Positions 6,367 through 43,569 of a stretch of 60,367 nt of DNA are shown in pieces. How positions within the stretch are numbered: position 1 is the stretch's first letter; every line of letters starts with the position of its first letter. The notes under the pieces were generated by a model. It ran no database searches. It was not told the DNA's origin and saw only the letters and a list, made by a program, of their open reading frames with translations. The position numbers and the translations under genes are program-made. The DNA lies in contig JASJAX010000045.1 in assembly GCA_030066755.1 (NCBI GenBank), forward strand, positions 1 through 60,367. Direction: 5' to 3'. The stretch comes from Acidimicrobiia bacterium (GTDB taxonomy: Bacteria; Actinomycetota; Acidimicrobiia; Spongiisociales; UBA5794).

Positions 6367-9084
6367 ATGCACGCCGCACCACACCGCACGACTCGCTTGA
6401 CCAGCTGGTTGGCCGACCGGGCAACCGCCGTGATCATCACGGCGATGCTCGTGACGGCCATCCTGGCATTGCCGTTCCTGACGATGGAACCGACCGAATC
6501 GGCTTCCCAGGAGCCGCCGGGACCGGTGTTCGAGGCGAGGGACCAGATCGAGGACGAGTTCGCCTCGTCGGTGTTCACGACGTTCACGATTGTCGAAGAT
6601 CGCAACGGTGACATCCTGCGAGCCGAGCCCCTGCGGGCGCTCCTGGCCGCCCAGGATGCCCTTCGTCAGGATCCTGAGCTGGGTCCGACCCTCTTCACGT
6701 ACTTCGATGCGACCGACCAAGCCGAGGTCGTGGGGATGCGATCGATCGCCGACATCATCGACGAGCGATTGGACGGCGGACTCGCCGCTGCGTCCGACGA
6801 ATCGGTCAAAGCGGTTGCGGCGCAACTCATCTCCGACCGCGGGGTGGCCGAACTCGGATTGTCCGCAGCAACGACACGGGATGCCGGCGGAATGCTCGTC
6901 GCACCGGCAGCGATCTTCCCGATCCTTTCCGACGACACCGTTTTGGGGTTCGGCGGGGCCGGGGTTCGCCTCGGCACCGACACTGCCTCGGAGGAGTACA
7001 GCCGGTCGGTGATCGAGGCCATCAGGGCCGACGGGGCGAGCTACTCGGCATGGGGGGTCGCCAACGATGTCAACCTCACCGCCGCAGAGCAGGGCGAGGC
7101 AGCCGGTCCGTTCATCGGCTTCACGATCCTCGCCGTGCTGCTCGTGGTCGGGTTCACCTTCCGCAGCTACTGGGTTTTGGCGGTCACCGGTGGTGCACTC
7201 GCCGCCCTGATCATCTGGCTGCAAGGCATCAGCAACCTGATCGGGCTGAAGGACGACCTCATCCTCTCGCTGATCGTGCCGATCGCCATGATCTCCTTCG
7301 GAGTCGACTTCACCTTCCACGCAGTCGGCCGATACCGCGAGGCTCGGCTGGAAGGTCGCAGGCCGCGGGCGGCGTTCTCGATCGGGATCGCAGCCGTCGC
7401 CGGAGCACTCGTACTCGCCTTGGCATCCGACAGCGGGGCGTTCCTCGCCAACACCGTGGCGCCGATCGAGTCCATCTATCAGTTCGGCCTCGGTGCGGCG
7501 ATTGCCCTGGTGGCCGCCTTCGTGCTGCTCGGGATCGTCACGCCGCTGGCCGTGATGAAGATCGAGGAGAAGGTCGGTTCGCCGGCTCCCACCCGACGCT
7601 CCCGGATCGCCGCCATCGCCGGATCCGGCCTCGCCGGAAGTCTCGCAATGACGTCGGTGTTGCTCAGCGTGTTCATTCTCCCCGCCGGTGGGCTGGTTGC
7701 GCTGGCCGTCTATCTCGTCGCCGCCGTCTGGCTGCCGTATCGGCTGGCGCGGCCTGGAACCGATGCACTCCACTCACTCGACGGTCCGGCAACGACCGGT
7801 CGGGGGACCCGCTTCGTCGGCGCTTTCGTCACGCGCATTGCACATGCTCGGCGGCCGGTCCTAGCGGTCGTCGCCGTGGCCACCGTTGCGGCGGCGCTGC
7901 TCGCCGTGCGAGTCCCGACCGAGTTCGATGTGAAGGACTTCTTCGCCCCGGACACCGACTTCGTGGTCGGGCTCGACAAGCTCGACGAACACGGAGGCGC
8001 CCAGGCCGGCGAGCCCGCCGCGATCCTCGTCGACGCCGACTTGACCGATCCATCCTCCGTGGCGTCACTCCAGTCATTCGTGACGGAGTTCGAGCAGCTC
8101 GACTCAGATCGGTTCGGCCGCGTTGATGACGGCCGGATCGACATCGATGGTGGTGTACTCGAGGTGATCAGGGAGGTGTGGGCCAGCCCCGCGGCTCAGG
8201 CGGCGATCGCCGGCGCCACTGGTGTCACGTTGAGCGACGTCGATGGTGACGGTGTCCCCGACACCTCCGAACAGCTTTCAGCGCTGTACGGGTTCACTCG
8301 CCAAGCGGGCGTGCCGTTCGATGCGGTCAACCTCACACGAACCCCGGACGGTGTTCGGAGCGTCCTGTCAGAGTCCGGCGGAACGGTGCTTCAGGTGCCG
8401 TTGCCGGGTTCCCGGCAGGTGGAGAACATCTCAGGGGCCCGCAGCGACGCTGCCCCGCTCGTCGCCGCCTTCAATTCGGAGCTGTCGGCGATCGACTCCG
8501 ATGCAACGGTGACCTTCACGGGCAGTCCGATTGCCCGTCAGGAGGCGCTCGATGCGATCTCGCAGGCGCTGCGGATCGGCCTCCCGATCGCCGTGCTCGT
8601 GTGTCTGCTGATCGCTGCCACCTTCATGCGATCGATCCGGTTCGCTCTGGTCAGCATCGTTCCGATCCTCATTGTGGTCACCTGGCTGTACGCCTTGATG
8701 TTCGCCGCCGGCTTTGCGATCAACCTCGTGACGGCAACCATCGGCGCCGTCTCGATCGGGATCGGCATCGACTTCGCGATTCACTTCACGATGCGATACC
8801 GCGAGGAGCTGGATCGCTCAGGAGTTCGCGACGTTGCGGTCCGTGCCGCGGCCGAGGGCACCGGGGTTGCGCTGATTGCCTCGGCAATCTCGTCGATGCT
8901 CGGCTTTGCGATTCTCGCCTTCGCCCCGATGCCGTTGTTCGCCTCCTATGGCCTCCTCACTGCAGTGATGATCGCCATGGCGGCCGCAGCGTCGCTGCTC
9001 GTGCTGCCGTCGCTGCTGGTACTCGTCACGCGTGACGCCGCCGAGCCCACGGTTCTGGAGTCTGCGCTGCCCGACGTCGCCTGA
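6367..9084 (+). CDS. MMPL/RND-superfamily membrane transporter
   Basis: The 905-aa protein has two blocks of about 6 TM helices, each followed by a large soluble loop, which is the MMPL-type layout. It is paired with the divergent TetR gene. Confidence 0.85.
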   Translation: MHAAPHRTTRLTSWLADRATAVIITAMLVTAILALPFLTMEPTESASQEPPGPVFEARDQIEDEFASSVFTTFTIVEDRNGDILRAEPLRALLAAQDALRQDPELGPTLFTYFDATDQAEVVGMRSIADIIDERLDGGLAAASDESVKAVAAQLISDRGVAELGLSAATTRDAGGMLVAPAAIFPILSDDTVLGFGGAGVRLGTDTASEEYSRSVIEAIRADGASYSAWGVANDVNLTAAEQGEAAGPFIGFTILAVLLVVGFTFRSYWVLAVTGGALAALIIWLQGISNLIGLKDDLILSLIVPIAMISFGVDFTFHAVGRYREARLEGRRPRAAFSIGIAAVAGALVLALASDSGAFLANTVAPIESIYQFGLGAAIALVAAFVLLGIVTPLAVMKIEEKVGSPAPTRRSRIAAIAGSGLAGSLAMTSVLLSVFILPAGGLVALAVYLVAAVWLPYRLARPGTDALHSLDGPATTGRGTRFVGAFVTRIAHARRPVLAVVAVATVAAALLAVRVPTEFDVKDFFAPDTDFVVGLDKLDEHGGAQAGEPAAILVDADLTDPSSVASLQSFVTEFEQLDSDRFGRVDDGRIDIDGGVLEVIREVWASPAAQAAIAGATGVTLSDVDGDGVPDTSEQLSALYGFTRQAGVPFDAVNLTRTPDGVRSVLSESGGTVLQVPLPGSRQVENISGARSDAAPLVAAFNSELSAIDSDATVTFTGSPIARQEALDAISQALRIGLPIAVLVCLLIAATFMRSIRFALVSIVPILIVVTWLYALMFAAGFAINLVTATIGAVSIGIGIDFAIHFTMRYREELDRSGVRDVAVRAAAEGTGVALIASAISSMLGFAILAFAPMPLFASYGLLTAVMIAMAAAASLLVLPSLLVLVTRDAAEPTVLESALPDVA

Positions 9085-9127: not shown

Positions 9128-9863
9128 AGATCCCCTGCAGCATCTCGAGGAGATCCACGAAACGCCGCGTGGCAAAGGTGATCTGTCCGACGTCGTCTCC
9201 GTCGGGCAGGATCTGCCAATAGCCGGCCGGACCGGCATCGAGCACGATGACCTCGGTGTCGCCGGCGGTGCCGTCGTCGCCGATCCAGAGCGATGAGATC
9301 CTCCAGCGGGACCGTCGCTGACAGTGGATCACCGTGAGTCGTTCTGCCCACCCCGGGTCGATTCCGTCGGCGATCAGCCGTGACGCAGCATCTGCGGGGT
9401 TCGCGCTCCACGCCATCTCCAACTCGTCGAGCAGATCGGCCGGCACCGTGACGGAGCCACTGATCGGGGCGTCCGGACGAGGTCCCAAGGTGACGAGCTG
9501 AGCCAGGTGGAAGGTCAGGAGTCCAACCTCGATCGGTCCGAGCCGGAAGAGGTCCGGACCGGCGGGTCGCCCCAGAACCGCGGACGTGCGGCGGATCCAG
9601 ATCGTCGAAATCGCGGTTCCTTCGTCGGTGGTGACCTCGATGGTGACCACGCGCGTCGGAGCGATCACCACCTCGAGCATGTCTGCGGCTTGTGGATGGA
9701 GCTGTCGGTCCGTCGTGATGCCGGCCCGTTCGAGTTCGACCAGGTCCCGTAGCCGCACACGGGCGGCGCCGTCCGACCCATGCGTGCCGAGGAGCATCAC
9801 GCTCGGCACGAGACGGCGTGGCAACGTGAGCGTGCCGCGACCGGCATCGAGAACTGCTTGCAT
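9126..9863 (-). CDS. EspG-like (ESX secretion-associated chaperone-like) protein
   Basis: I place the start at ATG 9863, which has an AGAGGGG RBS and lies 26 nt after the upstream stop. The protein is about 245 aa and soluble. Its pattern resembles the EspG family (LPRRLVP..., LGPRPDAP..., VTVPADLLDEL). It sits in a type VII-like locus. The call comes from resemblance and context only. Confidence 0.4.
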   Translation of the reverse strand: MQAVLDAGRGTLTLPRRLVPSVMLLGTHGSDGAARVRLRDLVELERAGITTDRQLHPQAADMLEVVIAPTRVVTIEVTTDEGTAISTIWIRRTSAVLGRPAGPDLFRLGPIEVGLLTFHLAQLVTLGPRPDAPISGSVTVPADLLDELEMAWSANPADAASRLIADGIDPGWAERLTVIHCQRRSRWRISSLWIGDDGTAGDTEVIVLDAGPAGYWQILPDGDDVGQITFATRRFVDLLEMLQGI

Positions 9864-9889
9864 CGATTGCCCCTCTGGTTCGGTGGTGG

Positions 9890-10828
9890 TCAGGAGTTCG
9901 CAGGGAGTGCTGGTGGTCCCGGCAGGATCTCGGCGACTCGCATTCCTCCGGTGGTTGTGACGAGTCGCAAGACGACCGCCATCGGGAGCGTCGCTCCGGC
10001 TTGATCGATGATGACCGCATCGGCGGTCGCCCACGTGCCGCCGCCAACCTCGCCGACCCGCACCGAGGTGACCTCGATGCGCTCCGCCGGGGCCGGGGTG
10101 ATCGCGATGATGTCGGCGTCGGATGTCACGAGGCGCGGGATTCGTCCGCTCCCCGCCAGGTAGGCGTCGAGGAATTCCTGCACAAACGTCAGGACCGAAT
10201 CGTTGCCCTCGCTCCGAAGGTCCGCGTAGATCCCGAACGGCACGCTTGCGACGGGGGTCGGCACCGGGAGCGGAGCGGCGGTAGCGAGGAAGCCGGAGCC
10301 GACCTCGGCCACCGCGACCTCGAAGTACTCAACGGTCCCGGCGCCGTAGCCGCCATCGACTCGTCGCAGTACGTCCGCCGCAACCGTGACTGTCCAGTAG
10401 CCGAACCCGATCGTGTCGGCGCCGACTGCGGCCGTCCGGCTCACGTATCGATCGTACGCAGCTACTGCAGCTGCAGGCGTGTCGACGGTGAACGATCGCA
10501 TCGTTGACGCACCGGCGCCGGTGAGATGCGCCGCAACGTACATCTCGGCAAAACCCATCAGGCCGTTCGGCGTCTCGTTGAGGACCGGTGGTGATGGAAG
10601 GGCGATCGCGGTGCGAGTACCCCGACCAATCGTCCACCCAGAAATCAACGCGACAACGATCGCCGGTCCCACCCACCAGAGGAAACGTCCGGCCCCAGGT
10701 CTGGACTGTTCGTTGGCTGCGTCGGAAGGTTCAGGATCGGGCTCGCAAGGTGAGTGGCTACGGGTCGAGACGAAGTCGTCGAGGTCCGTGATGGGGGAGC
10801 CGAGTGCCTCTGGATGCGTGATCATCAT
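9890..10828 (-). CDS. Single-pass membrane protein with two TcpC-like (NTF2-like) domains
   Basis: The start at 10828 overlaps the upstream stop (ATGATGA). There is one TM helix (FLWWVGPAIVVALISGWTI). Two repeated modules begin GFAEMYVAAHLTG... and LTFVQEFLDAYLAGSG..., as in conjugative TcpC-family proteins. Confidence 0.45.
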   Translation of the reverse strand: MMITHPEALGSPITDLDDFVSTRSHSPCEPDPEPSDAANEQSRPGAGRFLWWVGPAIVVALISGWTIGRGTRTAIALPSPPVLNETPNGLMGFAEMYVAAHLTGAGASTMRSFTVDTPAAAVAAYDRYVSRTAAVGADTIGFGYWTVTVAADVLRRVDGGYGAGTVEYFEVAVAEVGSGFLATAAPLPVPTPVASVPFGIYADLRSEGNDSVLTFVQEFLDAYLAGSGRIPRLVTSDADIIAITPAPAERIEVTSVRVGEVGGGTWATADAVIIDQAGATLPMAVVLRLVTTTGGMRVAEILPGPPALPANS

Positions 10829-23766: not shown

Positions 23767-24420
23767 CTAGCGATCTCGGGGTGGTTCGGTCACGAGCACA
23801 TGGCCGTCGAGCTGCGGTCGGCTGGTCCCATTGACCACGAAGGCGGCCCGCTCCCACGGTTGGTGTTCGGCCTGGAACGGCACCTCTTCGGCCATCCACT
23901 CATCCCAGAAGGCTTGGGCGGCGGCATCGCCGCCGTCGCGCGCAATACCGCGCGTGCGCGCAACGATCGGGTCCGACGTGACCCACACGGCCGCGTCGAG
24001 ATACGGGGCCAGCTCGCGTCGAGCGGCTCCCACGCCCTCGATGATCAGCCACTCGGTCGATGACTCGACGTGAATCGCTCCATCCCGGCCGCGGTCTTTC
24101 CAAGCATCCGGGCGATAGGCCACTGCAACGCCACGGCCTGCCGGCTCCAGCACATGGTCGATGAGCAGTGATGCCCAATCGAAGAACGAGTGATGCCACG
24201 CAACGTCATCGGTGTGGACGATGGCGCACCCCAGCAAGTTCGCCGCCAGCGCCGTCGCCAGTGTCGTCTTCCCACTTGCGCTGTGCCCGTCCACGGCAAT
24301 GACCCCAACGCTCCGACGTAACGGCGACGCAACCTCGACGAGATCGAGAGTCAGGTCCTCGATGGGCATGGCCCGCCAAGGCCCGAAGTCCGGCTCGTCA
24401 GGAAGCTTCGGCTCACTCAT
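23767..24420 (-). CDS. P-loop nucleoside/nucleotide kinase family protein (uridine-kinase-like)
   Basis: The Walker A motif is VDGHSASGKTTLA. A LIIEGVG Walker B-like strand is present. Confidence 0.7.
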   Translation of the reverse strand: MSEPKLPDEPDFGPWRAMPIEDLTLDLVEVASPLRRSVGVIAVDGHSASGKTTLATALAANLLGCAIVHTDDVAWHHSFFDWASLLIDHVLEPAGRGVAVAYRPDAWKDRGRDGAIHVESSTEWLIIEGVGAARRELAPYLDAAVWVTSDPIVARTRGIARDGGDAAAQAFWDEWMAEEVPFQAEHQPWERAAFVVNGTSRPQLDGHVLVTEPPRDR

Positions 24421-24432
24421 CGCACGTGTATC

Positions 24433-24460
24433 TCGGTACTCAGTACTCGCTACTCAGTAC
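24433..24460. repeat. Heptanucleotide tandem repeat, 4 units (TCNNTAC)
   Basis: The units are TCGGTAC TCAGTAC TCGCTAC TCAGTAC. The array is intergenic and ends 13 nt upstream of the kinase start. Confidence 0.7.
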
Positions 24461-24465
24461 TCCGG

Positions 24466-24488
24466 ATGCTCTGACGAAGTCAGAGCAT
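24466..24488 (-). terminator. Hairpin overlapping the stop codon of the Pat-like gene
   Basis: ATGCTCTGAC-gaa-GTCAGAGCAT forms a perfect 10-bp stem. There is no U-tract. Confidence 0.4.
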
Positions 24489-27203
24489 TCGGCCTGGGAT
24501 GTCCTTCCGGCTCGGGAGGAACACACCCGTCACCGGACGGATCTTGATCCGAGCGTCGACGACGACGGCACCCTTGCCCGGGGGCAACACCTTCACCGGG
24601 TTCAGGTCGATCTCGGCGATCTCGGTGACGTGCTCCACCAGCACGGACAGCCGCAGCAGCAGTTCCTGAATCGCGTCGAGATCGCCGCCGGCCCCTCCTC
24701 GATAGCCCTCTAGCAGCTTCGCCGACTTCACCTCGGAGAGCATCTCCTTGGCATCGACGTCGGTCAGCGGATTGATCCGGAACGAGACGTCCTGCATCAG
24801 CTCGACGAAGATGCCTCCGAGCCCGAAGACGATCAGCGGGCCGAAGAGCGGATCCTCCGTCATGCCGACGATGACTTCGTGCCCTTCGCCGACGAACTCC
24901 TGGACGAGGACGCCTTCGACGTCGTCGACGGCGCCGATCACCTGGCGGTACGCCTCGCGGATTCCCGGTTCGCCGAGCACGCCGAGGGCCACCCCGCCGA
25001 CGTCGGACTTGTGGAGCGCCGATGGAGCGATCACCTTTAGCGCGAGGGGACCGCCGATCTCCTCACCGGCGGCGACGGCTTCGTCCTCGGTGTGGACGAC
25101 TCGCTCTCGAGCCACCGGGATGCCATACGCGCCGAGGATGGCCTTGATCTCATCCGAATTCAGCCAGCCGCCGTCCGTTCCGAGACGCCGCAACGACGAG
25201 CGGACCGCCGTGCGGGCCGCCTCGCGATCGATGTCGTCGAACGCGGGGAACGCACCTTCCTCTTTCTCCCGCCACTCGCGGTACTGCACCGCCGATGCGA
25301 GCGCGCGGGCGGCCGACTCCGGGTAGGTGAAGACGGGGAGGCGGGAATCGGCCGGGCCCTCCGGCACCTTGGCCGATGAGCCCATGAACACGCCGATGGC
25401 CGTCTTCTCGCCGCCGTACTCAGCCACGGCGCTGCGGATCGAGGCGACGATCTCCTCGGTGCCTTCGGGGGCGGTCGGGATGTAGATGGCGATCACCGCG
25501 TCGACCTCGTCGGACTGGAGCAGCAGCTTCAGGCACTCGCGATACTCGTCCGGCCCCGCCGAGGCGATCATGTCCACCGGGTTGTGAGGAGCCGCCATGC
25601 CGGACAGATGCTCCTTGATCTGGGCTTGGAGCTCGTCGGAGAACACCGGCAGCTCGAGATCCTGCCCTTCGATGGCGTCGGCGGCGAGGATGCCCGGTCC
25701 GCCGGCATTGGTGAGCACCGCAACGCGTCGCCCGTGGGGGAGCGGCTGGTTGGCGAGCAGTGTGGTGACCTCGAACAACTGGTGCAGCGTGTTCGTCCGG
25801 ATCACGCCCGACCGCCGGAAGAGTGCATCGACCGCGACGTCGAGGCTCGCCAGCGACCCGGTGTGCGATGCCGCCGCCCGGGCGCCGGCCGACGATCGCC
25901 CGGCCTTCACGACCACCACGGGCTTCTTCTTGCTCACCCGCCGGGCGAGGCGGCCAAACCGACGCGGGTTCCCGAAGGACTCCATGTAGAGCAGGATCAC
26001 GTCGCTCGCCGGATCGTCCTCCCAATAGAGGAGGAGGTCGTTGGCGCTGACGTCGGCGCGGTTGCCGAGCGACACGAACGTCGAGATCCCGATGCCGAGC
26101 TCGGCGGCCTGCTCCAGGATGGCGAGGCCGAGGGCGCCCGATTGGCTCGACATGGCCACGTTGCCGTGGGGAGGGAAGGTCGGGCCGAACTGCGCATCAA
26201 GCGAGATGTTGGGGTCGGAATTGAGGACTCCCATGCAGTTGGGGCCCACCATCCGCATCCCGTAGCGTCGTGCCGACGTGACGATGGCTTGCTCGAGCTC
26301 AGCCTCGCCGACTTCGCTGAACCCGGCTGAGATGACGACGACGCCCTTGACGCCCTTCTTGCCGCACTCGTCGATCGCCTGCTTGACGTGCTGCGACGGC
26401 ACCACGACGAGCGCGAGATCGACGGGTCCGGGGATGTCCAAGACTGAGGGATACGCCGCGATGGAGTGAACGAACGGCGCACCCGGGTTGACGGGGTAGA
26501 CGGTGCCGGTGAAGTCGCCCATCAGGATGTTCTTGAAGAGCCGGCCGCCGATGGACTTCGGGTTGCGTGAGGCACCGATCACGGCCACCGATGTCGGATA
26601 GAGCACGGGCATGAGCGAGGCCGTGACGGCGCGCTTCTCATGCTCCCACTCGGCTTCGCGGGCCTCGACCGAGTAGTCGATCGGGAACTCGACGCGGAAG
26701 ATGCCTTCGTCGAGTTGGCGGGTGAGTCGGTAGCCCGAATCACGGAAGAGCCGCATCATGGCGACGTTCTCCGCCAGCACATACGCCTCGAACTCCGTGA
26801 TGCCGCGGCTGCGGGCGTACACGGTGAGGTGTTGGAGCAGATGGCGACCGATACCGCGACCCTGGAAGGCGTCCTCGACGAGGAACGCAACTTCGGCGAC
26901 TTTGTTGTCGTCGTCGGACTGTTCGTCGAGCACGTCGTAGCGACCAACGGCGACCATCTCGTCGCCGACCGTGGCGATCAACGCCATCCGGTTGTCGTAG
27001 TCGAGCGTTGTGAAGTGCTTCAGCTCCTCCGGGCTGAGGTCCAGCTTCATCCCGAAGAAGCGGTGATATACGGACTCCGGGCCGACCCGCTGGAAGAACC
27101 GGTGCTCGCGCTCGGCGTCGTCGGGTCGGATGGGGCGGATGTGGAGTGCTTGCCCGTTCTTCAGGAGAACGTCGAACTCGAACTCGGTGGGGTATTCAGC
27201 CAT
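24480..27203 (-). CDS. Pat-like protein acetyltransferase: N-terminal GNAT fused to an NDP-forming acyl-CoA synthetase-like region (CoA-binding, ligase-CoA, ATP-grasp)
   Basis: I place the start at ATG 27203 (MAEYPTEFEF...). The GNAT motif is QGRGIGRHLL. The CoA-binding motif is VAVIGASRNPKSIGG. The C-terminus is an ATP-grasp domain. The rest of the 1303-aa ORF is antisense shadow over proC and the proline dehydrogenase gene. Confidence 0.85.
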   Translation of the reverse strand: MAEYPTEFEFDVLLKNGQALHIRPIRPDDAEREHRFFQRVGPESVYHRFFGMKLDLSPEELKHFTTLDYDNRMALIATVGDEMVAVGRYDVLDEQSDDDNKVAEVAFLVEDAFQGRGIGRHLLQHLTVYARSRGITEFEAYVLAENVAMMRLFRDSGYRLTRQLDEGIFRVEFPIDYSVEAREAEWEHEKRAVTASLMPVLYPTSVAVIGASRNPKSIGGRLFKNILMGDFTGTVYPVNPGAPFVHSIAAYPSVLDIPGPVDLALVVVPSQHVKQAIDECGKKGVKGVVVISAGFSEVGEAELEQAIVTSARRYGMRMVGPNCMGVLNSDPNISLDAQFGPTFPPHGNVAMSSQSGALGLAILEQAAELGIGISTFVSLGNRADVSANDLLLYWEDDPASDVILLYMESFGNPRRFGRLARRVSKKKPVVVVKAGRSSAGARAAASHTGSLASLDVAVDALFRRSGVIRTNTLHQLFEVTTLLANQPLPHGRRVAVLTNAGGPGILAADAIEGQDLELPVFSDELQAQIKEHLSGMAAPHNPVDMIASAGPDEYRECLKLLLQSDEVDAVIAIYIPTAPEGTEEIVASIRSAVAEYGGEKTAIGVFMGSSAKVPEGPADSRLPVFTYPESAARALASAVQYREWREKEEGAFPAFDDIDREAARTAVRSSLRRLGTDGGWLNSDEIKAILGAYGIPVARERVVHTEDEAVAAGEEIGGPLALKVIAPSALHKSDVGGVALGVLGEPGIREAYRQVIGAVDDVEGVLVQEFVGEGHEVIVGMTEDPLFGPLIVFGLGGIFVELMQDVSFRINPLTDVDAKEMLSEVKSAKLLEGYRGGAGGDLDAIQELLLRLSVLVEHVTEIAEIDLNPVKVLPPGKGAVVVDARIKIRPVTGVFLPSRKDIPGRML

Positions 27204-27269
27204 GGCTCCTCGGCTCAGATCTGTCGCCACAAAACATATCGGTGTCCACCCATTCTCCCAAGGTGGGAC

Positions 27270-27340
27270 CAAGTCCCAAGTCTCGAGTCGCAAGTCCCAA
27301 GTAGCAGGTCTCAGGTCGCAGGTCGCAAGTCCCAGGTCCC
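27270..27340. repeat. Heptanucleotide tandem repeat, 10 units (CARGTNN)
   Basis: The units are CAAGTCC CAAGTCT CGAGTCG CAAGTCC CAAGTAG CAGGTCT CAGGTCG CAGGTCG CAAGTCC CAGGTCC. The array lies in the divergent Pat/proC intergenic region. Confidence 0.8.
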
Positions 27341-27389
27341 GGATGAGCCACGAGGCGGTCCTGGACGGGGCTCCCTCTATCATCTGCTC

Positions 27390-28220
27390 ATGCGACCGAC
27401 CGTTGCCATTCTCGGAGCCGGCTCGATGGGCCAGATCCTCGCCGAAGGACTCGTGCGCGCCGGCTGGGATCCCGGCGAGTTGATCCTGGCTGCCCGTCGG
27501 AAGGAGCGGGCCATCGAGGCTGAGCGACTCACCGCCGTGACCTGCGTGCTCGATGCGGCCGAGGCGGCAGCAGGGCGAGAGGTCGTCGTCATCGCCGTCA
27601 AGCCGAAGGACATGGCGGGTCTCCTTGGGCAGGTGGCTGAGGTCATCAATCCTGACCAAGTGGTCGTGAGCCTCGCTGCCGGCGTGCCACTGATGGCCAT
27701 CGAGGCTGCGCTTCCGGGCGTCCCCGTCGTGCGGTCGATGCCGAACACCCCGGCGGCCGTCGACGAGGGGATGACGGCGTACTGCCTCGGTGGAGCGGCC
27801 GACGAGGTCGCCGGAGACAAGGCGGCAGCGGTGCTCGCCGCCGTCGGCGAGACGATCGAGCTCAGCGAAGACCTCCTCGACGCCGTCACCGCCGTTTCGG
27901 GCACCGGACCGGCCTACATCTTCCTGCTCGCCGAAGCCTTGACCGAGGCCGCGATCCGAGAAGGTCTGCCGCACCATGCCGCCGAGCGCCTCGTCGATCA
28001 AACGGTGCGCGGCGCCGGCATCCTGCTCCAGTCCTCGGAGAAGAGCGCATTCCGCCTCCGGGCCGAAGTGACGTCCCCGGGCGGAACCACCGCTGCGGCG
28101 ATGCACACGCTCGAGAACGGTGGGTTCCGGGCTCTGCTCGAAGATGCGGTTCGTTCGGCGACGCAGCGGTCGCAGGAACTCGGCCGCGCCGCTGTCGAGG
28201 CCTCCAGCGAGGACCGCTGA
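27390..28220 (+). CDS. proC: Pyrroline-5-carboxylate reductase
   Basis: The start is at ATG 27390. The Rossmann motif is ILGAGSMGQIL. MPNTPAAV and SPGGTT motifs are present. Confidence 0.85.
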   Translation: MRPTVAILGAGSMGQILAEGLVRAGWDPGELILAARRKERAIEAERLTAVTCVLDAAEAAAGREVVVIAVKPKDMAGLLGQVAEVINPDQVVVSLAAGVPLMAIEAALPGVPVVRSMPNTPAAVDEGMTAYCLGGAADEVAGDKAAAVLAAVGETIELSEDLLDAVTAVSGTGPAYIFLLAEALTEAAIREGLPHHAAERLVDQTVRGAGILLQSSEKSAFRLRAEVTSPGGTTAAAMHTLENGGFRALLEDAVRSATQRSQELGRAAVEASSEDR

Positions 28221-28221
28221 G

Positions 28222-29136
28222 GTGACAACGGCGCTCGGGCGGACGGTCCTCGCGTTCACCGGGCATCCCCAGATCCAGCGGCTCTTCACCGAGACGAAGG
28301 CAGGGCGCGCCCTCTCCACCCGGTTTGTCGCCGGCGAAACCATCGATGATGCGATTCGTGTCGCTCGAGACCTCAATGCCACGGGCGCCACGGTGTCACT
28401 CGATCACCTCGGGGAGCACGTCTCCGAGCGTGACCAAGCCGTGGCTGCCCGCGACGATTACCTGGCCTGCCTGGACGAGATCGCGGCTGCAGGGATCGAG
28501 GGCAACATCTCGATCAAGCTGACCCAACTCGGGCTCGGTACCGACGACGAGCTGGCAACGGCGTCGCTCGGGGCACTGGCGGAGCGGGCTGCCCGCGTTG
28601 GGACTTCGGTCACGGTGGACATGGAAGAGAGCACCCACACCGAGATGACGATCGGCATCTTCGAGAAGGTCCAGGCCGAGTTCGGCAACCTCGGTGTTGC
28701 GATCCAGTCGTATCTCCGGAGGACGCCGGCCGATCTACAGCGTCTCGAAGCAGCGGGTGGGCACGTGCGGCTTTGCAAGGGTGCGTACGCCGAACCTCCC
28801 GACCTCGCACTGCAGTCGAAGGCCGACGTCAACGGGGCGTTCGATGCGCTGCTCGGCCGACTCATGGCATCGGAGCGGCTCACACCGGCGATCGCCACTC
28901 ACGACGCAACCCGAATCGGACTCGCTCAGCTGCTCGGTGCCGATCGCCACTCGCATTGGGAATTCCAGATGCTCTACGGGGTGCGGACGAAGCTGCAATC
29001 CCAGCTGCTGGGTGACGGCTACCGCCTCCGCATCTACGTTCCGTACGGCCAGGCCTGGTATCCGTATCTGACCCGGCGCCTGGCTGAACGTCCTGCCAAC
29101 CTCTGGTTCTTCCTGCGGGCCTTGCTGGGCCGGTAG
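28222..29136 (+). CDS. Proline dehydrogenase (monofunctional PRODH)
   Basis: The GTG start lies 1 nt after the proC stop. The PRODH TIM-barrel pattern is present (VSLDHLGE ... ISIKLTQLG ... VRLCKGAY ... ATHD ... EFQMLYG). Confidence 0.8.
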   Translation: MTTALGRTVLAFTGHPQIQRLFTETKAGRALSTRFVAGETIDDAIRVARDLNATGATVSLDHLGEHVSERDQAVAARDDYLACLDEIAAAGIEGNISIKLTQLGLGTDDELATASLGALAERAARVGTSVTVDMEESTHTEMTIGIFEKVQAEFGNLGVAIQSYLRRTPADLQRLEAAGGHVRLCKGAYAEPPDLALQSKADVNGAFDALLGRLMASERLTPAIATHDATRIGLAQLLGADRHSHWEFQMLYGVRTKLQSQLLGDGYRLRIYVPYGQAWYPYLTRRLAERPANLWFFLRALLGR

Positions 29137-34034: not shown

Positions 34035-34083
34035 CTCGTACGGGCTACGGGCTACGAAGTACGTTGTACGGCGAACGGCCGAC
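34035..34083. repeat. Heptanucleotide tandem repeat, 7 units (GNNNNAC)
   Basis: The units are CTCGTAC GGGCTAC GGGCTAC GAAGTAC GTTGTAC GGCGAAC GGCCGAC. The last two units run into a hairpin arm. Confidence 0.65.
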
Positions 34084-34094
34084 GGGCCGTTCGC
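34071..34094 (+). terminator. Hairpin upstream of pspA
   Basis: GCGAACGGCC-gacg-GGCCGTTCGC forms a perfect 10-bp stem. A TAGAAT -10-like box follows at 34104-34109. Confidence 0.5.
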
Positions 34095-34991: not shown

Positions 34992-37900
34992 CTATTCGTC
35001 GAGGGAGCACTCGTCGAAGTAGTACGTGCACAGCTCCGCGTCGGTGAGTCCGCGGTGGAGGCGACTCTTGGCGATCTCGATGAGATCGTCGAGGTCCAGC
35101 GCCCACACCTGGGTCAGGCCGGAGATGCCGTCGTACCCAGACGTTGCGAGCATGTTCCCGTCCGGGCTCAGTGCCAGGTGGCTCACGAGGTAGCCCTGGT
35201 TGAGGAGGAGTTGCTCGCGTCCGGTCGCAGCGTCCCAGAACCGAATCGTCCCGTCCTCACCCGTACTGACGATTGTTGCGCCTGCGTCTGCCCAGTGAGC
35301 GTCTTCAACCGGCCCAACGTGGCCGCGCAATTCCTGAACGATGCGCTTGCTGGTGTAGTCCCAGATCTTGATCACGCCGTCGGATCCGGCGGTGAGAAGT
35401 GTCTCGCCATCGGGGCTGAAGCGAACGGCGCCGTGGAATGCCGGACCGTGGGTGCCGATGCGGGACGGCCTCTCTGTCCTGAGGTCCCAGATCAGGACGT
35501 TGTTCTCCCGGGCGCCGGTGGTGACTGCGAGCAGATTTCCGTCCGGGTGGAAGTCCACTCGGAATCCGGCTTTGGAGTTGCTCAATGACGGCGCCGAGAA
35601 GACTTCGTTGGCTGTCGCAACGTCCCAGACGCGGAGGATGGGCTGTCGCGTTTCTTGATGCCACACCGTTGCAGCAACCAACGTGCCGTCGTTGCTGAAG
35701 TCGACGCCGCCTCGTGCCGCGACGCCGCTGACCAGATGAGTCTCTTCGCCCGACTCGAGATCCCACAGAATCACCGAGCCATCAACCCCGGCGCCGTCCC
35801 AGGCAGTCGTAACGAGCTTGGTGCCATCCGGGTTGAAGGCCGCTCCTTCGGCCGCCCCCAAACCACCACTGACCAGCCGGCCCGCGCCCTCGAGCACCGT
35901 CGCCTGCTCCCATGTGGTCGTGTTGAAGAGGGCAACGTGTTGGTCGGAGTCCCACGATGTTGCGAGATTCGATCCGTCGGGAGAGAACACAATGGCCGCC
36001 CCCGATGTTGGGTCGATGACACCCCACTCACCTCCACTTCTGCGTGAGATATCCCAGACGCGGGTGCGTTCGGTACCTTCCCAGTGGGTCGTCGTGACGA
36101 GCTTCGTTCCGTCGGGGCCGAACTCCATATCGCCGATGAAATCGGTATGGCCATACAAACGCTCGATGAGTCTGAAGCCTGTACGCGAGACTCGCCACAG
36201 CTCGAGATCTCCGCCGGATCCGCCTATTGCGATGAGATCATCGACGGCGCTGACTGCCGTCGTTTGGATTGAGCCCTCGGACGGTTGTGTGCGAACGAGC
36301 GACCCATCTCCGGCGTCGTACAAGCGGATGGTCCCGTCGTACGAAGTGGTCACGACGTGCTCTCCGCTCGAGAGGAACTTGGCGGTGAGCGTGGTGAACG
36401 GGGCCTCGAGGCGCACGGCGATCTCGCCCGATGCGACATCGAGGATCCAGGCCTCGGTGTCGCCCGGACCGGCGACAGCCAGGTGTTCGCCGCGCGGGCT
36501 GAAGGTCAAATCACGCACGTGCCACCCGGTCGTCTCGGTGCTCCAAAGCATCTGGCCCGGGTCATCGGCTTCCCGGAAATCCGGACCGGGACCCGAATCC
36601 TCGAATACTCGTTCGACGTCCCACACCCGGACCCAACCGTCGGTGTTCCCGGCGGCGAGTAGCGCGCCGTCCCGGCTGAAAGAAATGGCCGTGATCTCCG
36701 GCTTCATGCCGATGACCTGGCTCGACAACAGCTCGCCGGTGGCCGCGTCGAAGATCGCGATTTCGCTGATCTCGGGGCCCACGGCAGCGACATACCGCCC
36801 GTCCGCGCTTGCGGCAATTGGAGTATTTGCAAGAAGGCGAACGTCGCCGCCCAGCTGGAAGGGGTCGTACCTGACAGAGCTCGTACCGGTAGCGGGATCC
36901 CACCGCTCAGTTCGCGACCCGGCGATCACGACATCGCCGTCGGGGAGCACGGCCGCATCCCATCCGCTCGGCAGGTCGAGGTACGGCCGCGCCGCCATCA
37001 CGGCTGCGTGCAACGCTTCGGTCGCCTCCCGGGTCACACCCTCGCCGGCGTCGCGGGTAACGCCGGCTGCCTCGAGCGCAAGGAGGATCGCCAACTCCGG
37101 GTCGATCGTCTGTGCAGCAGCCGATGCCGACGCCAGTTCCCTTGCACGAGATGCCCGGTGGGCGGTTGCCAGCCCTTCTGCGCTGATCTCAGCGGCCTTC
37201 TGCAGCCGCTCTGCCTCCGCCGCGCTCGCTTCTGCCTCTGCTGCGCTCACCTCGGCAGCTGCTTGCTGCGTCTGCGCCTCTGTCGCGTTTCGCTCGGCCG
37301 CCTGCTGGTTCACGAACGCCACGACCGCAAGCACGACAGCAACTACGGCAGCGCAGGCGAATCCCGCCATCACGATGCGTCGCCTTTCACGCTGTCGCCG
37401 GTCCAGGTCGTCGGCTTGCGTCCGGCTCGCCTGGAGGTACTCGGATTCCTCACTCGTCAATGACAGGTCCGTCTCCTGTGCCCAGGTCTCGAAGTGGTCG
37501 AGCCGGCCTCCCGACAGGAGGTATGCCGGCTCACGCGACTGGTCCCGCCACTCGGCAACGGCCTCGTGAAGCCGTCGCTCCAGGACGAGATCGTCGCGGC
37601 GGTCATCGATCCAGGACCGCAGCCTCGGCCAGCGATCGAGGATTGCCTCGTGGGCGACCTCGACGGTTGGCGTACGCGTGGTTGGATCCCGGTCGAACGT
37701 CAGCAGTCGACTTTCGCCGAAGACCGCCAGGACCCGATCGAGGGCTGCGGTCTCCACCGGAAGGCGGTGGAACTCGTCGAGGGCGACTCGGCGCTTCGTG
37801 CAGTCGCCACCCTCGTCAACGGCCACGAGTCGGAGGAACAGCTGTCGCGCCGCCTCTCTGGCCGGCTCGTCGAGGTGGTTGAAGCGGTCCTCGGCTCGCG

Positions 37901-40259
37901 CTCCGAGCGCCCCGAGCACGCCGCCCGACGCCTCATATGTGGATCGTTCGATCCGCCCTTCGCTGCGTCGCTCGAACAGCTCGGTGAGCGCGAACTCCAG
38001 GAGCGGGAGACCACCCGGCTGGTCACGGACGTCGCGTACGAGGTCAGTGTCGATGCCGGCCTCGAGTTCGATCCCGACCGCCTGGGCCGGGCGGGTGATC
38101 ACCGCAACGAGTTCCGGCTCGGACAGCGGGGTCACCATCACTGCAGCGTGGCGCACGAGGTCGCCGAATCTGGCGTGCGATAGCGGCCGATCGAGGAAGT
38201 CCGCACGCAACGTGATCACGACGCGGATCCGGTTGCCTGGATCCGTTGCGAGCTGCGCAAGCGTGTCCATGAAGGTCCGACGTATGTCGTCCGCCGGGCT
38301 GAGGGTGAAGAGCTCCTCGAACTGATCAACGATGAGCAGGAGCCGACTCGTCGCCGGGAGCAATCCGCGGACCTTGGCCACGGCATTTGCCGGGTCGTTG
38401 CGAAGACGAGCACCGAGATCGGCAACGGGCTCGACGGCGACGCCGAGGAGCGCCGCTTCGAGCTCGCCGAACGGATCGCCACCAGGGAAGAGATCGGCGA
38501 TCAGCCAACCCCCGTCGAGTCGTCCGGATCGGATAGCCGGGACCAGGCCGGCATGAACGGCACTCGACTTGCCGCTGCCCGAGGCTCCAATGACGGCGAC
38601 GAGACCATGGTGTGCGACGGCATCGAGGAGATCGTTGACGAGGGATGCGCGACCGAAGAAGTCCCCGGCGTCAGCTTCCGAGAACGCTCGGAGGCCTTTG
38701 TACGGGTTGCGGATGGTCTCGGGCTCCGAAGCAGGGGCGCGGCGTGGTGCAATCAGTCGGCGGAGGTCGTCGAGGAACTCGTCGATGGAGCGATACCGGT
38801 CGGCCGGTTGGGGTGCGATGGCCGTTCCGACCACATCGGCCAGCTCCGGCTCGAGTTCGGCCAGAGCCGGACCGGTGGAGTCCGGCTTGGGCACGTCGCC
38901 GGCCAACGCAGCCAGCGCAAGCATGCCGAGGCCGTGGACGTCAGACCGGACGGTCGCCGTGTGTCCTGCCGACTGTTCGGGAGAGGTGAAGGTCGAGGCT
39001 TCGGTGTCCCGATCCCCCAGCCGGCGTGCGATACCGAAGTCGGCGAGGTAGGCATCCCCGTCCTCGCTGAGGAGCACGTTGCCCGGATGAACGTCGCAGT
39101 GCACGACCCCGCGGCTGTGGGCGTACGCCAACGCCGAGCCGACCTGTTCGACGATCCGCAGCGACTTCTTGGGCTCGAGCGGTCCGGTCCCAAGCGTGTG
39201 CCACAGGTTCCGCCCTCGCATGAGCGGCATCACGAGGTACGCCGCGTCCGGCTCGCGCCAGAAGTCGTAGAGCGGCACGATGTGCGGATGGGCCAGCTGA
39301 GCAACGATTCGTGCCTCCGACTCGAATCGCTGGACGAACTCGGCATGATTCGCCACCTCTGCGGGTACCGCCTTGATCGCCACCTCACGGCCAACACTCG
39401 GTTGGTACGCCCGGTACGTGACGCCCGAGGCGCCTTCGCCGATCGGGCCGCGCAGCTCGTAGCCACGTACGCGCGAAGGTGCAGTCTCGACGGGTGAGGG
39501 ACTCAGCAACACCGGATCCTGCTGGAGGATGCGATCCTCCAGGTTGCGCAGTTCGGCTGAGGGCTCGATGCCCAGCTCAGCCAGGACGTCGCCGGCCCGA
39601 GTGAACGCACGGAGCGCATCCGCCTGTCGTCCCGATCGGTAGAGCGCGACCATGAGTTGGCCCCACATCCGCTCGCGGAATGGGTGCCGCTCGATGAGGG
39701 TCTCGAGTTCTCCGATCAACGAAGCGTGGCGACCGAGTCGCAGCTCGCAGTCGACACGGAGCTCGAAGGCCGTCGACTGCAGTTCCTCGAGGCGGCGGAT
39801 TTCGGCTTGGGCAAAGGGCTCGTAGGCCACGTCCGCGTAGGGTCGGCCACGCCACAGCTGGAGGGCGTCGTTGAGGGTCGACAGCGCGCCCTCTGGATCG
39901 GACTGAGCCGCACTCTCGGCCGCTTTGAGCCGGTCCTCGAACAGGGTGGCGTCGAGCGCGGCAGGGTCGACGTGCAGCATGTAGCCGGGTGAGCGGGTCT
40001 CGAGGAGGCTCGACTTCGCCCCAGTCGCACGGTCCGGCTCCAGCGCCTTGCGCAGATGGGCCACGTGTACCTGGAGCGTCTTTCCGCCGCCGGCTGGCGG
40101 ATCATCACCCCACAGCTCATCGAGAATCCGATCGGTGGCCAACACCTCGTTGGCGTGGATCAGCAGCAGGGCGAGCAGAGCTCGTTGCTTCGGGCGCCCG
40201 AGGTCGATCGGTTGTTTGGCTTCCCCCGCTTCGATCGTGCCCAGCACCCGGAATTCCAT
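34992..40259 (-). CDS. Multidomain signalling protein: SARP (OmpR-type wHTH + BTAD), Ser/Thr protein kinase, STAND-type P-loop NTPase, TM helix, coiled coil, and about 14 WD40 repeats
   Basis: I place the start at ATG 40259 (MEFRVLGTIEAG). The BTAD region includes LWRGRPYADV and ALYRSGRQADAL. Kinase motifs are GEGASGVTY, VAIK, HCDVHPGN and ADFG. The NTPase begins NPYKGLRAFSEADAGDFFGR and carries GASGSGKSS and LLIVDQFEE. The TM helix is encoded at 37308-37370 and is preceded by RRQRERRR. WD40 units carry WD dipeptides through to the C-terminus. Confidence 0.85.
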   Translation of the reverse strand: MEFRVLGTIEAGEAKQPIDLGRPKQRALLALLLIHANEVLATDRILDELWGDDPPAGGGKTLQVHVAHLRKALEPDRATGAKSSLLETRSPGYMLHVDPAALDATLFEDRLKAAESAAQSDPEGALSTLNDALQLWRGRPYADVAYEPFAQAEIRRLEELQSTAFELRVDCELRLGRHASLIGELETLIERHPFRERMWGQLMVALYRSGRQADALRAFTRAGDVLAELGIEPSAELRNLEDRILQQDPVLLSPSPVETAPSRVRGYELRGPIGEGASGVTYRAYQPSVGREVAIKAVPAEVANHAEFVQRFESEARIVAQLAHPHIVPLYDFWREPDAAYLVMPLMRGRNLWHTLGTGPLEPKKSLRIVEQVGSALAYAHSRGVVHCDVHPGNVLLSEDGDAYLADFGIARRLGDRDTEASTFTSPEQSAGHTATVRSDVHGLGMLALAALAGDVPKPDSTGPALAELEPELADVVGTAIAPQPADRYRSIDEFLDDLRRLIAPRRAPASEPETIRNPYKGLRAFSEADAGDFFGRASLVNDLLDAVAHHGLVAVIGASGSGKSSAVHAGLVPAIRSGRLDGGWLIADLFPGGDPFGELEAALLGVAVEPVADLGARLRNDPANAVAKVRGLLPATSRLLLIVDQFEELFTLSPADDIRRTFMDTLAQLATDPGNRIRVVITLRADFLDRPLSHARFGDLVRHAAVMVTPLSEPELVAVITRPAQAVGIELEAGIDTDLVRDVRDQPGGLPLLEFALTELFERRSEGRIERSTYEASGGVLGALGARAEDRFNHLDEPAREAARQLFLRLVAVDEGGDCTKRRVALDEFHRLPVETAALDRVLAVFGESRLLTFDRDPTTRTPTVEVAHEAILDRWPRLRSWIDDRRDDLVLERRLHEAVAEWRDQSREPAYLLSGGRLDHFETWAQETDLSLTSEESEYLQASRTQADDLDRRQRERRRIVMAGFACAAVVAVVLAVVAFVNQQAAERNATEAQTQQAAAEVSAAEAEASAAEAERLQKAAEISAEGLATAHRASRARELASASAAAQTIDPELAILLALEAAGVTRDAGEGVTREATEALHAAVMAARPYLDLPSGWDAAVLPDGDVVIAGSRTERWDPATGTSSVRYDPFQLGGDVRLLANTPIAASADGRYVAAVGPEISEIAIFDAATGELLSSQVIGMKPEITAISFSRDGALLAAGNTDGWVRVWDVERVFEDSGPGPDFREADDPGQMLWSTETTGWHVRDLTFSPRGEHLAVAGPGDTEAWILDVASGEIAVRLEAPFTTLTAKFLSSGEHVVTTSYDGTIRLYDAGDGSLVRTQPSEGSIQTTAVSAVDDLIAIGGSGGDLELWRVSRTGFRLIERLYGHTDFIGDMEFGPDGTKLVTTTHWEGTERTRVWDISRRSGGEWGVIDPTSGAAIVFSPDGSNLATSWDSDQHVALFNTTTWEQATVLEGAGRLVSGGLGAAEGAAFNPDGTKLVTTAWDGAGVDGSVILWDLESGEETHLVSGVAARGGVDFSNDGTLVAATVWHQETRQPILRVWDVATANEVFSAPSLSNSKAGFRVDFHPDGNLLAVTTGARENNVLIWDLRTERPSRIGTHGPAFHGAVRFSPDGETLLTAGSDGVIKIWDYTSKRIVQELRGHVGPVEDAHWADAGATIVSTGEDGTIRFWDAATGREQLLLNQGYLVSHLALSPDGNMLATSGYDGISGLTQVWALDLDDLIEIAKSRLHRGLTDAELCTYYFDECSLDE

Positions 40260-43347: not shown

Positions 43348-43451
43348 GCGGCAATCGTGCGTCGTGCGAGTCGCCGACACCAGGGCCGGACGGCCATCGA
43401 AGGAGCGACTGGTGAGCTACCGACGGAACTCGTCCTGCGGCGGCGATGATC

Positions 43452-43486
43452 TGGCTACTGGCTACTCCCGACCAAGTACCAAGTCT
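43452..43486. repeat. Heptanucleotide tandem repeat, 5 units, combining both sub-types
   Basis: The units are TGGCTAC TGGCTAC TCCCGAC CAAGTAC CAAGTCT. The array lies in the divergent methyltransferase/PFOR intergenic region. Confidence 0.6.
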
Positions 43487-43569
43487 TCCCGGGACCATGT
43501 GCCCTATCACGCGCCGACGCCCCATGTTCGTATAGGGCGCACATATCTACCCGGCTGAGGAGCATTGCC

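Follow-up and report, generated by a model that had tools for sequence, protein, structure and literature searches.

We analyzed a 60,367-nucleotide (nt) contig of an uncultured Acidimicrobiia bacterium (JASJAX010000045.1, assembly GCA_030066755.1), hereafter the window, in which ten contiguous 7-nt units (the main array, 27270–27339) lie between two divergent genes. On one side, a Pat-like gene (24480–27203, minus strand) encodes a protein of 907 amino acids with an N-terminal GNAT domain and NDP-forming acyl-CoA synthetase domains; on the other, proC (27390–28220, plus strand) encodes a pyrroline-5-carboxylate reductase of 276 amino acids. These Pfam assignments bear out the divergent Pat/proC setting given in a first-pass annotation of this DNA, whose listing of the ten units also proved exact by direct reading and with Tandem Repeats Finder (TRF). 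Based on the analyses described below, the main array may be regarded, with a probability of roughly 0.6, as an old, interrupted, and stabilized copy of a dispersed heptanucleotide simple sequence repeat (SSR) similar to the cyanobacterial STRR repeats, which would have been generated by slippage and would serve as a largely function-free spacer.

The Main Array

The units follow one another head-to-tail in the order CAAGTCC, CAAGTCT, CGAGTCG, CAAGTCC, CAAGTAG, CAGGTCT, CAGGTCG, CAGGTCG, CAAGTCC, and CAGGTCC, with the consensus C-A-R-G-T-C-B. TRF reported a period of 7 at 27269–27340 with 10.3 copies, 78% matches, and a score of 60 (75 when read at period 14). Positions 1, 4, and 5 of the unit are invariant, and variation occurs mostly at position 3 (A/G) and position 7 (C/T/G). 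Head-to-tail iteration of 7-nt units beyond chance length is characteristic of the heptanucleotide long SSRs (LSSR5-11). The six different variants found among the ten units differ from the perfect or near-perfect tracts of phase-variable promoter SSRs.

The main array had no Rfam match at gathering thresholds and contained no tRNA. Folding of the plus strand did not go beyond that of shuffled sequences (z = +0.6), and the value for the minus strand (z = -2.7) was due to flanking GGGACC/GGUCCC pairing, so a structured RNA or a terminator built of units was not supported. G-quadruplexes, SARP operators, iterons, and DnaA boxes were rejected on geometry. In particular, CCC/GGG occurs at only four unit junctions (approximately 27274, 27295, 27330, and 27337, with gaps of 18, 32, and 4 nt), so the series of four or more nearby G3 tracts typical of G-quadruplex-forming heptamer repeats is absent from either strand.

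Putative Promoters of the Flanking Genes

The Pat-like gene starts with an ATG (27203–27201) preceded by the Shine-Dalgarno sequence GAGGAG (27211–27206); its homologs align from residue 1, and an identical protein is annotated on public contigs. A putative core promoter was placed at 27233–27261 on the minus strand, with a -35 box TTGGGA (27261–27256), a 17-nt spacer, and a -10 box TATGTT (27238–27233), leaving 8 nt between the end of the -35 box and the main array. This placement is supported by a related short contig (L112; 84–87% nt identity), in which the arrangement TTGGGG-17-TATGTT is kept.

Relatives of ProC align from residue 1–2, and the start in public gene calls lies 36 nt downstream of the one used here. 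A putative -10 box TATCAT was found on the plus strand (27378–27383), 6 nt before the ATG. Because a TATCAT/TAACAT-type box also lies just before the start codon in its relatives, proC is very probably leaderless: TATCAT-, TAACAT-, or TATGAT-like boxes stand a few nt ahead of the start codon in nearly all 22 proC relatives inspected. This organization appears to be group-wide, a -10-type box with no Shine-Dalgarno sequence being present both in the window (27378–27392) and in L001–L029 (near 9985–10003). A leaderless proC would place the main array at about -50 to -120, outside the proC transcript. Most likely, then, neither transcript includes the main array, which occupies the stretch separating the two back-to-back core promoters. 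A generic sigma-70 promoter scan of the window called neither the Pat nor the proC core promoter.

A coding role for the main array, as an N-terminal extension of Pat, was also considered. A minus-strand open frame of 1303 amino acids (24480–28391) crosses the array, and our home-made gene caller, which relies on GC content at third codon positions, had merged it with Pat. This reading was rejected, because Pfam matches proC on the opposite strand but nothing in the part of the frame that precedes the Pat ATG, and because Pat homologs begin at MAEYPTEF; the long frame is a high-GC artifact.

We also compared hexamers between intergenic and coding DNA, using all intergenic DNA of the window and of L114, a second region of the same species (14.4 kb) that was reached through contig L088. 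With 10 occurrences observed versus 0.6 expected, TTGACA was the most enriched hexamer in intergenic DNA; TTGGGA and CAAGTC/GACTTG came next. Arrays of GGACTTG therefore offer a -35-like TTGGGA every 7 bp.

Other Period-7 Arrays in the Window

TRF detected five period-7 matches in the window, all within its ~7% intergenic DNA. The non-coding position of the arrays, as stated in the first-pass annotation, is confirmed by Pfam-supported gene models and by public gene calls on near-identical contigs. Its three further intergenic arrays, here called loci A, C, and D, are real though smaller than the main array.

Locus A (24432–24462) reads CTCGGTA CTCAGTA CTCGCTA CTCAGTA CTC, that is, units of the CTCRGTA type (4.4 copies; TRF score 41, or 55 at period 14). 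On one side of it is a hairpin that overlaps the Pat stop codon, and on the other is the next minus-strand gene, which starts with the ATG at 24420. The same unit type recurs at L114 1073–1103 and around L114 14010, and locus A is unchanged in three other contigs. The hairpin (24464–24490, minus strand) has a stem of 11 positions, 10 of them paired, with the sequence GAAUGCUCUGA-CUUCG-UCAGAGCAUCC, and includes the Pat stop codon TGA (24482–24480). Locus A follows it directly and ends 11 nt upstream of the next ATG; the gene that begins there has no obvious ribosome-binding site except the GAG of the repeat units.

Locus C (34039–34084) begins with TACGGGC x2.6, the only part detected by TRF (34039–34056), and continues with degenerate units in which ACG recurs at period 7, giving seven units over 34040–34084. 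A six-unit ACG pattern of this kind had two matches in the window and none in 100 shuffles. Locus C extends into a terminator-like hairpin upstream of pspA and is unchanged in four other contigs.

Locus D consists of a perfect CTGGCTA array of 2.3 copies (43451–43466) and a right part, CCAAGTA CCAAGTC (43472–43485), whose unit type is that of the main array. As had been noticed before, positions 27267–27283 are identical to 43470–43486 at 16 of 17 positions (common 17-mer, GACCAAGTNCCAAGTCT), and no equal match was found in 100 shuffles. In the window, loci C and D are short (2–3 perfect units) and become convincing only with the family-level evidence and, for locus D, with the longer allele described below. 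One further intergenic match (1518–1533, AACAACG x2.3) is marginal; its unit is unrelated to the others and it may be a chance product.

Over-Representation and Location of Period-7 Arrays

To put these loci in context, TRF was run on the window and 80 related loci (1.22 Mb) at a score threshold of at least 40, with first-order Markov simulations (3 x 1.22 Mb) for comparison. Twenty-four period-7 arrays were observed versus 0.0 in the simulations. Period 7 was the sole non-triplet period in excess, a property of LSSR5-11 repeats; periods 5, 8, 10, 11, and 13 were at or below expectation, with observed/simulated numbers of 1/0.7 for period 8, 1/4.3 for period 10, 8/6.0 for period 11, and 8/7.7 for period 13. 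More arrays were present in a further 226 kb obtained via Pat relatives. Autocorrelation of intergenic DNA at lag 7, taken globally, was rejected as an indicator; its signal was only weak (0.285 versus about 0.27 in the window), because the arrays are local and the intergenic set still holds missed genes.

About nine in ten of the 40 arrays with at least three copies lay in intergenic DNA or at its edge: 28 fell into intergenic gaps that were scored, 8 were at the ends of loci, and only 4 were within called genes. The last number corresponds to ~1.29 Mb of coding DNA and to a density ~100-fold lower than that of intergenic DNA, an intergenic bias that LSSR5-11 repeats also have. When intergenic regions were classed by the strands of their flanking genes, array densities per kb were 0.25 (++), 0.38 (--), 0.19 (-+), and 0.21 (+-). 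Such similar densities would be predicted by tolerance rather than by a promoter- or terminator-specific role.

No orientation preference was evident either. In L114, CARGTC/CAGTCG-type blocks (full arrays and shorter runs) pointed four each way by hand count, and a replication-strand bias was rejected because array orientations are mixed within this region. A hand tally of sense-strand G-versus-C excess in co-directional arrays revealed no consistent skew, which led us to reject Rho utilization or a C-rich sense strand.

Genome-Specific Unit Families

The arrays of this species share units beyond chance, as the first-pass annotation had proposed in describing them as a family, and they occur on other contigs too. 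For 12 arrays in ~75 kb, the mean distance between units was 2.44, compared with 3.04 +/- 0.15 for random intergenic heptamers (P ~0.0005), and 12 near-identical unit pairs were found versus 2.0 expected. CCAGTCG, CARGTCN, and CTCRGTA each occur at three loci, so that a few heptamer types are dispersed over many intergenic loci of one genome, as with STRR repeats. L114 alone contains seven period-7 arrays in its 14.4 kb, including an 11.4-copy CARGTCN array (9793–9872) in the divergent spacer that separates the genes for an epimerase and DAHP synthase; it also has three CCAGTCG loci and one CTCGGTA locus. In both large arrays, C, G, and T at positions 1, 4, and 5 are almost invariant, and positions 3 and 7 vary.

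Other Acidimicrobiia also carry period-7 arrays, with different units. Unit distance, computed with rotation and strand taken into account, was 2.28 within genomes and 3.11 between genomes (permutation P < 0.0002). A universal unit across Acidimicrobiia was rejected, since the pooled units gave 20 near-identical pairs versus 14.5 +/- 4 for random intergenic heptamers; unit likeness is present only within genomes. The units of the other genomes are enriched in AGT/ACT (12 vs. 4.0 expected, P = 3e-4) and CAG/CTG (16 vs. 7.0 expected, P = 5e-4) and are somewhat AT-richer than intergenic DNA. Only 16 of 2.9 million viral contigs carried four CARGTCN units, a count that was uninformative.

It is possible, though unlikely in our opinion, that a nucleic-acid-binding protein recognizes the arrays sequence-specifically as reiterated sites, with selection for binding keeping the C-A-R-G-T-C core and spreading the unit type across the genome. 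Candidates would be a regulator, a nucleoid-associated protein, or an OB-fold protein of the cold-shock type whose footprint is ~7 nt, and Csp, S1, and CsrA have been proposed as heptamer binders for the TAACTGA repeats (PMC4679880). Genome-specific unit families and the nearly fixed positions 1, 4, and 5 beside variable positions 3 and 7 in both large arrays would agree with this idea, as would the GA(C/T) phase that persists in the degenerate units of L112 and the central location of the main array, the L114 9793 array, and locus D in divergent promoter regions. However, slippage copying of a few variant units could also give shared variable positions, and the arrays are equally dense whether the spacer is convergent, co-directional, or divergent and have no orientation bias relative to genes. 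A 7-bp period would set successive sites 240 degrees apart on the duplex, unlike known cooperative operators such as the SARP sites of Streptomyces, at 11 bp (PMC5930380). In addition, the main array is probably untranscribed, and an RNA-level role would therefore be excluded there. SARP operators resemble the arrays in being actinobacterial direct heptamer repeats in promoter regions, and the window does encode a SARP-domain protein, but they consist of 2–3 heptamers with 4-nt spacers (PMC5930380), whereas the units here are contiguous and number up to 10–11, with ten copies in the main array.

Several inverted array pairs were observed (L050 15824–15930, L113 185–443, and L114 5993–6145), which could form long imperfect hairpins or cruciforms. 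The L050 pair consists of GAGTCNN x4, 9 nt, and then GACTCNN x8, and the L113 pair of GAACRTC and its complement, 180 nt apart. A CAGTCGT-type array of five units (L114 12042–12078) constitutes the whole 37-nt spacer between two convergent stop codons and leaves no room for a conventional terminator.

Copy Number and Conservation

Seven other assemblies of the same species have the main array without a single base difference. The species is present in GCA_029979915.1, GCA_029979945.1, GCA_029979995.1, and GCA_029980145.1. Length variation was found at locus D only, where CTGGCTA is present in 2 copies in the window and in 8 copies (8.3) in two haplotypes, L082 and L139, that are otherwise 99.7–99.8% identical to the window. 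This whole-unit difference of 6 units (42 bp) between close strains is of the kind known for LSSR5-11 repeats. We do not think that the 2-copy state is an assembly collapse, because the 16-nt tract is shorter than usual assembly k-mers. Purity thus tracks instability: the 78%-pure main array is constant, and the perfect tract of locus D is variable.

These data bear on whether the arrays are contingency loci, in which unit number alters the spacing or helical phasing of divergent promoters and thereby switches or tunes the flanking genes, as the first-pass annotation had suggested with slipped-strand tuning of promoter spacing. The model for such a role is the ATCTTTC repeat between P2 and P1 of Haemophilus influenzae hmwA, one of the documented heptanucleotide promoter repeats that tune transcription (PMC8262952). 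In favor of such a role, divergent genes flank the main array, the L114 9793 array, and locus D, and the 42 bp gained or lost at locus D between near-identical strains amount to about four helical turns. The hmw1A/hmw2A (ATCTTTC)n arrays, which likewise lie between promoter elements, are perfect, vary among clonal isolates, and tune expression (PMC8262952); the main array, in contrast, is imperfect, has no length variant in eight assemblies, and stands beside housekeeping genes. Since it would also lie outside both core promoters, changes in unit number would leave the -35/-10 spacing unaltered. Arrays are equally dense between convergent genes, and the flanking genes (proC, Pat, DAHP synthase, and pyruvate:ferredoxin oxidoreductase) have housekeeping or metabolic rather than surface or contingency functions. 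We therefore consider contingency control improbable, and for the main array the proposed tuning is not supported, given its constancy.

The closest genomes are metagenome-assembled genomes of uncultured Acidimicrobiia, with ProC identity of at most 80%. None of the upstream regions of the 22 proC relatives has either Pat or the main array beside proC, and the only array found upstream of proC among them is of an unrelated TACTGGA type, in the array-rich L047. The main array is also absent from Pat relatives with 85% protein identity. In L112, however, a homolog of the main array is located at the same place upstream of Pat; it is in register with the window apart from a single 3-nt gap and more degenerate, with GACTTGG x4.7 still recognizable and the GA(C/T) phase still visible. 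This degenerate homolog indicates that the main array is old and retained.

Two structural differences have a breakpoint exactly at the main array. At its proC-side edge, L112 has 586 nt (169–754) in place of the 36 nt of the window (27341–27376), so that the indel boundary coincides with the array edge; the segment holds a small open reading frame with a lipoprotein-like signal peptide (MRIMMVLVVVVAATAC...). The hybrid contig L088 (GCA_029979995.1, JARPNG010005454.1, 2660–2950; 99.4% identical) contains Pat and the first four main-array units, followed by different units (13 in all) and the flank of the DAHP synthase gene, whose usual neighbor in L114 and L115 is the epimerase gene. L088, the only variant of the main array, reflects either recombination between two CARGTCN arrays or an assembly chimera across arrays.

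Such junctions raise the question whether the arrays derive from a mobile element or a templated process, through either a small non-autonomous element that carries heptamer arrays or a repeat-adding enzyme or repair polymerase that adds genome-specific heptamers at breaks. Consistent with this are the unit types common to many loci, the two junctions themselves, the inverted array pairs of L050, L113, and L114, and a dispersed repeat of ~48 nt in L114 that begins with heptamer-like units and is found three times. On the other hand, no terminal inverted repeats, target-site duplications, or shared flank homology were found among loci with the same unit (CTCRGTA x3 and the CARGTCN arrays), whose flanks had only unit-like sequence in common; no transposase or reverse transcriptase gene adjoins, and no pair of empty and filled sites was found. 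Given the ~35 nt common to its two arrays, L088 could itself be a chimera produced in assembly, and ectopic recombination between similar arrays accounts for the junctions without mobility. A mobile or templated origin thus appears very improbable, and the earlier idea of mobile-element remnants found nothing in terminal repeats or flanks to support it.

The three copies of the ~48-nt repeat (L114 6051–6098, 6124–6171, and 12486–12535; none in the window) start with heptamer-like GGCTTGGGACTTGAC, with TTGAC inside, and end with GGTCTGCCGCGT(T/C)C.

Comparison with Known Heptanucleotide Repeats

Heptanucleotides are the most abundant long SSR class in most prokaryotic genomes according to a survey as cited in later papers, which place three Actinobacteria within the ten genomes richest in heptanucleotide repeats and mention polymerase slippage on a ~7-nt contact as the proposed cause of the excess (Mrazek et al. 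2007, via PMC4679880 and PMC4692102). The arrays described here share with these LSSR5-11 repeats tandem 7-nt units beyond chance length, a preference for period 7, intergenic location, whole-unit length change, and hosts that include free-living bacteria, Actinobacteria among them. The novelty suggested in the first-pass annotation, which knew of no such family in high-GC Gram-positive bacteria, is therefore not supported. For Acidimicrobiia themselves, no prior description of heptanucleotide arrays was found in the searchable literature; the genome-specific unit families and the AGT/CAG unit bias are documented here in addition.

Genome-specific heptamer families occur in cyanobacteria (STRR; GGGGAYT), Xanthomonas (GGGAATC), and marine Beggiatoaceae (TAACTGA), and none of them has a demonstrated function in the native organism (PMC4679880, PMC4692102). 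The analogy with STRR repeats drawn earlier is apt. As in the cyanobacterial STRR and Nostoc GGGGAYT repeats, a few related heptamer types form dispersed intergenic tandem arrays in one genome, although both phylum and units are different. Like Xanthomonas GGGAATC repeats (PMC4692102), the arrays belong to a high-GC genome with one predominant unit family across many intergenic regions, persist beside the same genes in related species although their length and sequence vary extensively, and occasionally form inverted pairs. Unlike them, the unit is not based on a G tract; with no run of four G3/C3 tracts in the main array, G-quadruplex folding would not be expected. The Beggiatoaceae TAACTGA repeats (PMC4679880) are likewise genome-specific heptamers at many intergenic sites, with an ACTGA/CAGT-like core. 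Locus A, with sense units GAGTACT/TACTGAG close before an ATG, resembles their placement just upstream of start codons. However, TAACTGA repeats are mostly in one orientation and directly upstream of start codons, whereas no preference for orientation or position was observed here.

The STRR1–3 units (CCCCAGT, TTGGTCA, and CAACAGT) were reportedly described by Mazel and coworkers in 1990. In the rotation CCCAAGT, the main-array unit resembles STRR1. The units found here (CARGTCB, CCAGTCG, CTCRGTA, and CTGGCTA) are similar but not identical to the STRR units.

Generation and Possible Role of the Arrays

A reasonable hypothesis is that slipped-strand mispairing, or unequal exchange between units, creates the arrays and changes their length, with a marked bias for a 7-nt period in this lineage. 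Arrays would persist only at sites where they interrupt no reading frame. Perfect arrays would be unstable, as suggested by the 2 or 8 units of locus D, and point substitutions would interrupt others, such as the main array, and make them stable. The main array would make up nearly all of the DNA that separates the Pat-like core promoter from that of leaderless proC, and we infer that it has no sequence-specific role beyond that of a spacer.

Several points weigh against this hypothesis. Pure local slippage leaves unexplained why unit types are shared across the loci of one genome (P ~0.0005 and P < 0.0002 in the two tests above), why AGT/ACT and CAG/CTG are enriched in the units of other Acidimicrobiia, and why only the same two unit positions vary in both large arrays; it also gives no reason for the preference for 7 nt. 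Moreover, the promoter positions are inferred rather than mapped, the scan extended over only ~75 kb of DNA from this species plus 1.4 Mb from relatives, and the gene caller was a crude one of our own.

A more far-reaching idea is that the arrays are made or maintained by a dedicated sequence-reading mechanism, common across phyla, that would impose both the register of 7 nt and, in each genome, a particular unit built on a (C)AGT core. Candidates are a heptamer-binding protein, a polymerase that adds repeats or acts in repair, or a preference of the replisome or primase. Such a core is seen in this genome as YMAGTMB, in the AGT and CAG enrichment of other Acidimicrobiia, in STRR1 and STRR3, and in the TAACTGA repeats. 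We regard this mechanism as doubtful; if it exists, arrays would be preferred sites of rearrangement.

The present finding extends the STRR-like heptanucleotide phenomenon to Acidimicrobiia, an abundant and mostly uncultured actinobacterial class, in which each genome has its own related unit set. Why seven, and why a genome-specific unit, have been questions since the cyanobacterial repeats and the 2007 survey, and a second, unrelated array-rich lineage makes both approachable: many Acidimicrobiia genomes are available, and array density could be correlated with replication and repair gene content. In metagenomes, perfect arrays are variable-number markers that can separate strains otherwise 99.8% identical, and arrays that share units can yield chimeric or broken contigs, of which L088 is a probable example.

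Additional Observations

In L095–L101 (70% identity), multiple copies of a different, REP-like palindromic element, for example CCCCCACTTCGTGGTGGAGGGGAG and CTCCCAGGCCGCCCCCTC, are located ~100–330 nt upstream of the Pat homolog, with no heptamer arrays there. L114 also has two large in-frame tandem repeats inside genes (6380–6599 and 3037–3228): one has a 15/75-nt period (CTTGGCGGGGGCCTT x14) and encodes an Ala/Lys/Pro-rich repeat on the minus strand, and the other a 105-nt unit x1.8.

Exact-protein look-ups gave no match for ProC with the long start, the methyltransferase, or pyruvate:ferredoxin oxidoreductase. Upstream of the gene for the last of these, close to locus D, an imperfect inverted repeat (ATGTGCCCTAT ... 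ATAGGGCGCACAT, 43498–43544) may be an operator; L082 has two single-nucleotide polymorphisms in or beside it. The SARP-domain protein of the window (34992–40259, minus strand) is 1755 amino acids long and, according to precomputed Pfam matches of identical public copies, has a SARP-type N-terminus (Trans_reg_C and BTAD) together with a Ser/Thr kinase domain, an nSTAND NTPase, and WD40 propellers.

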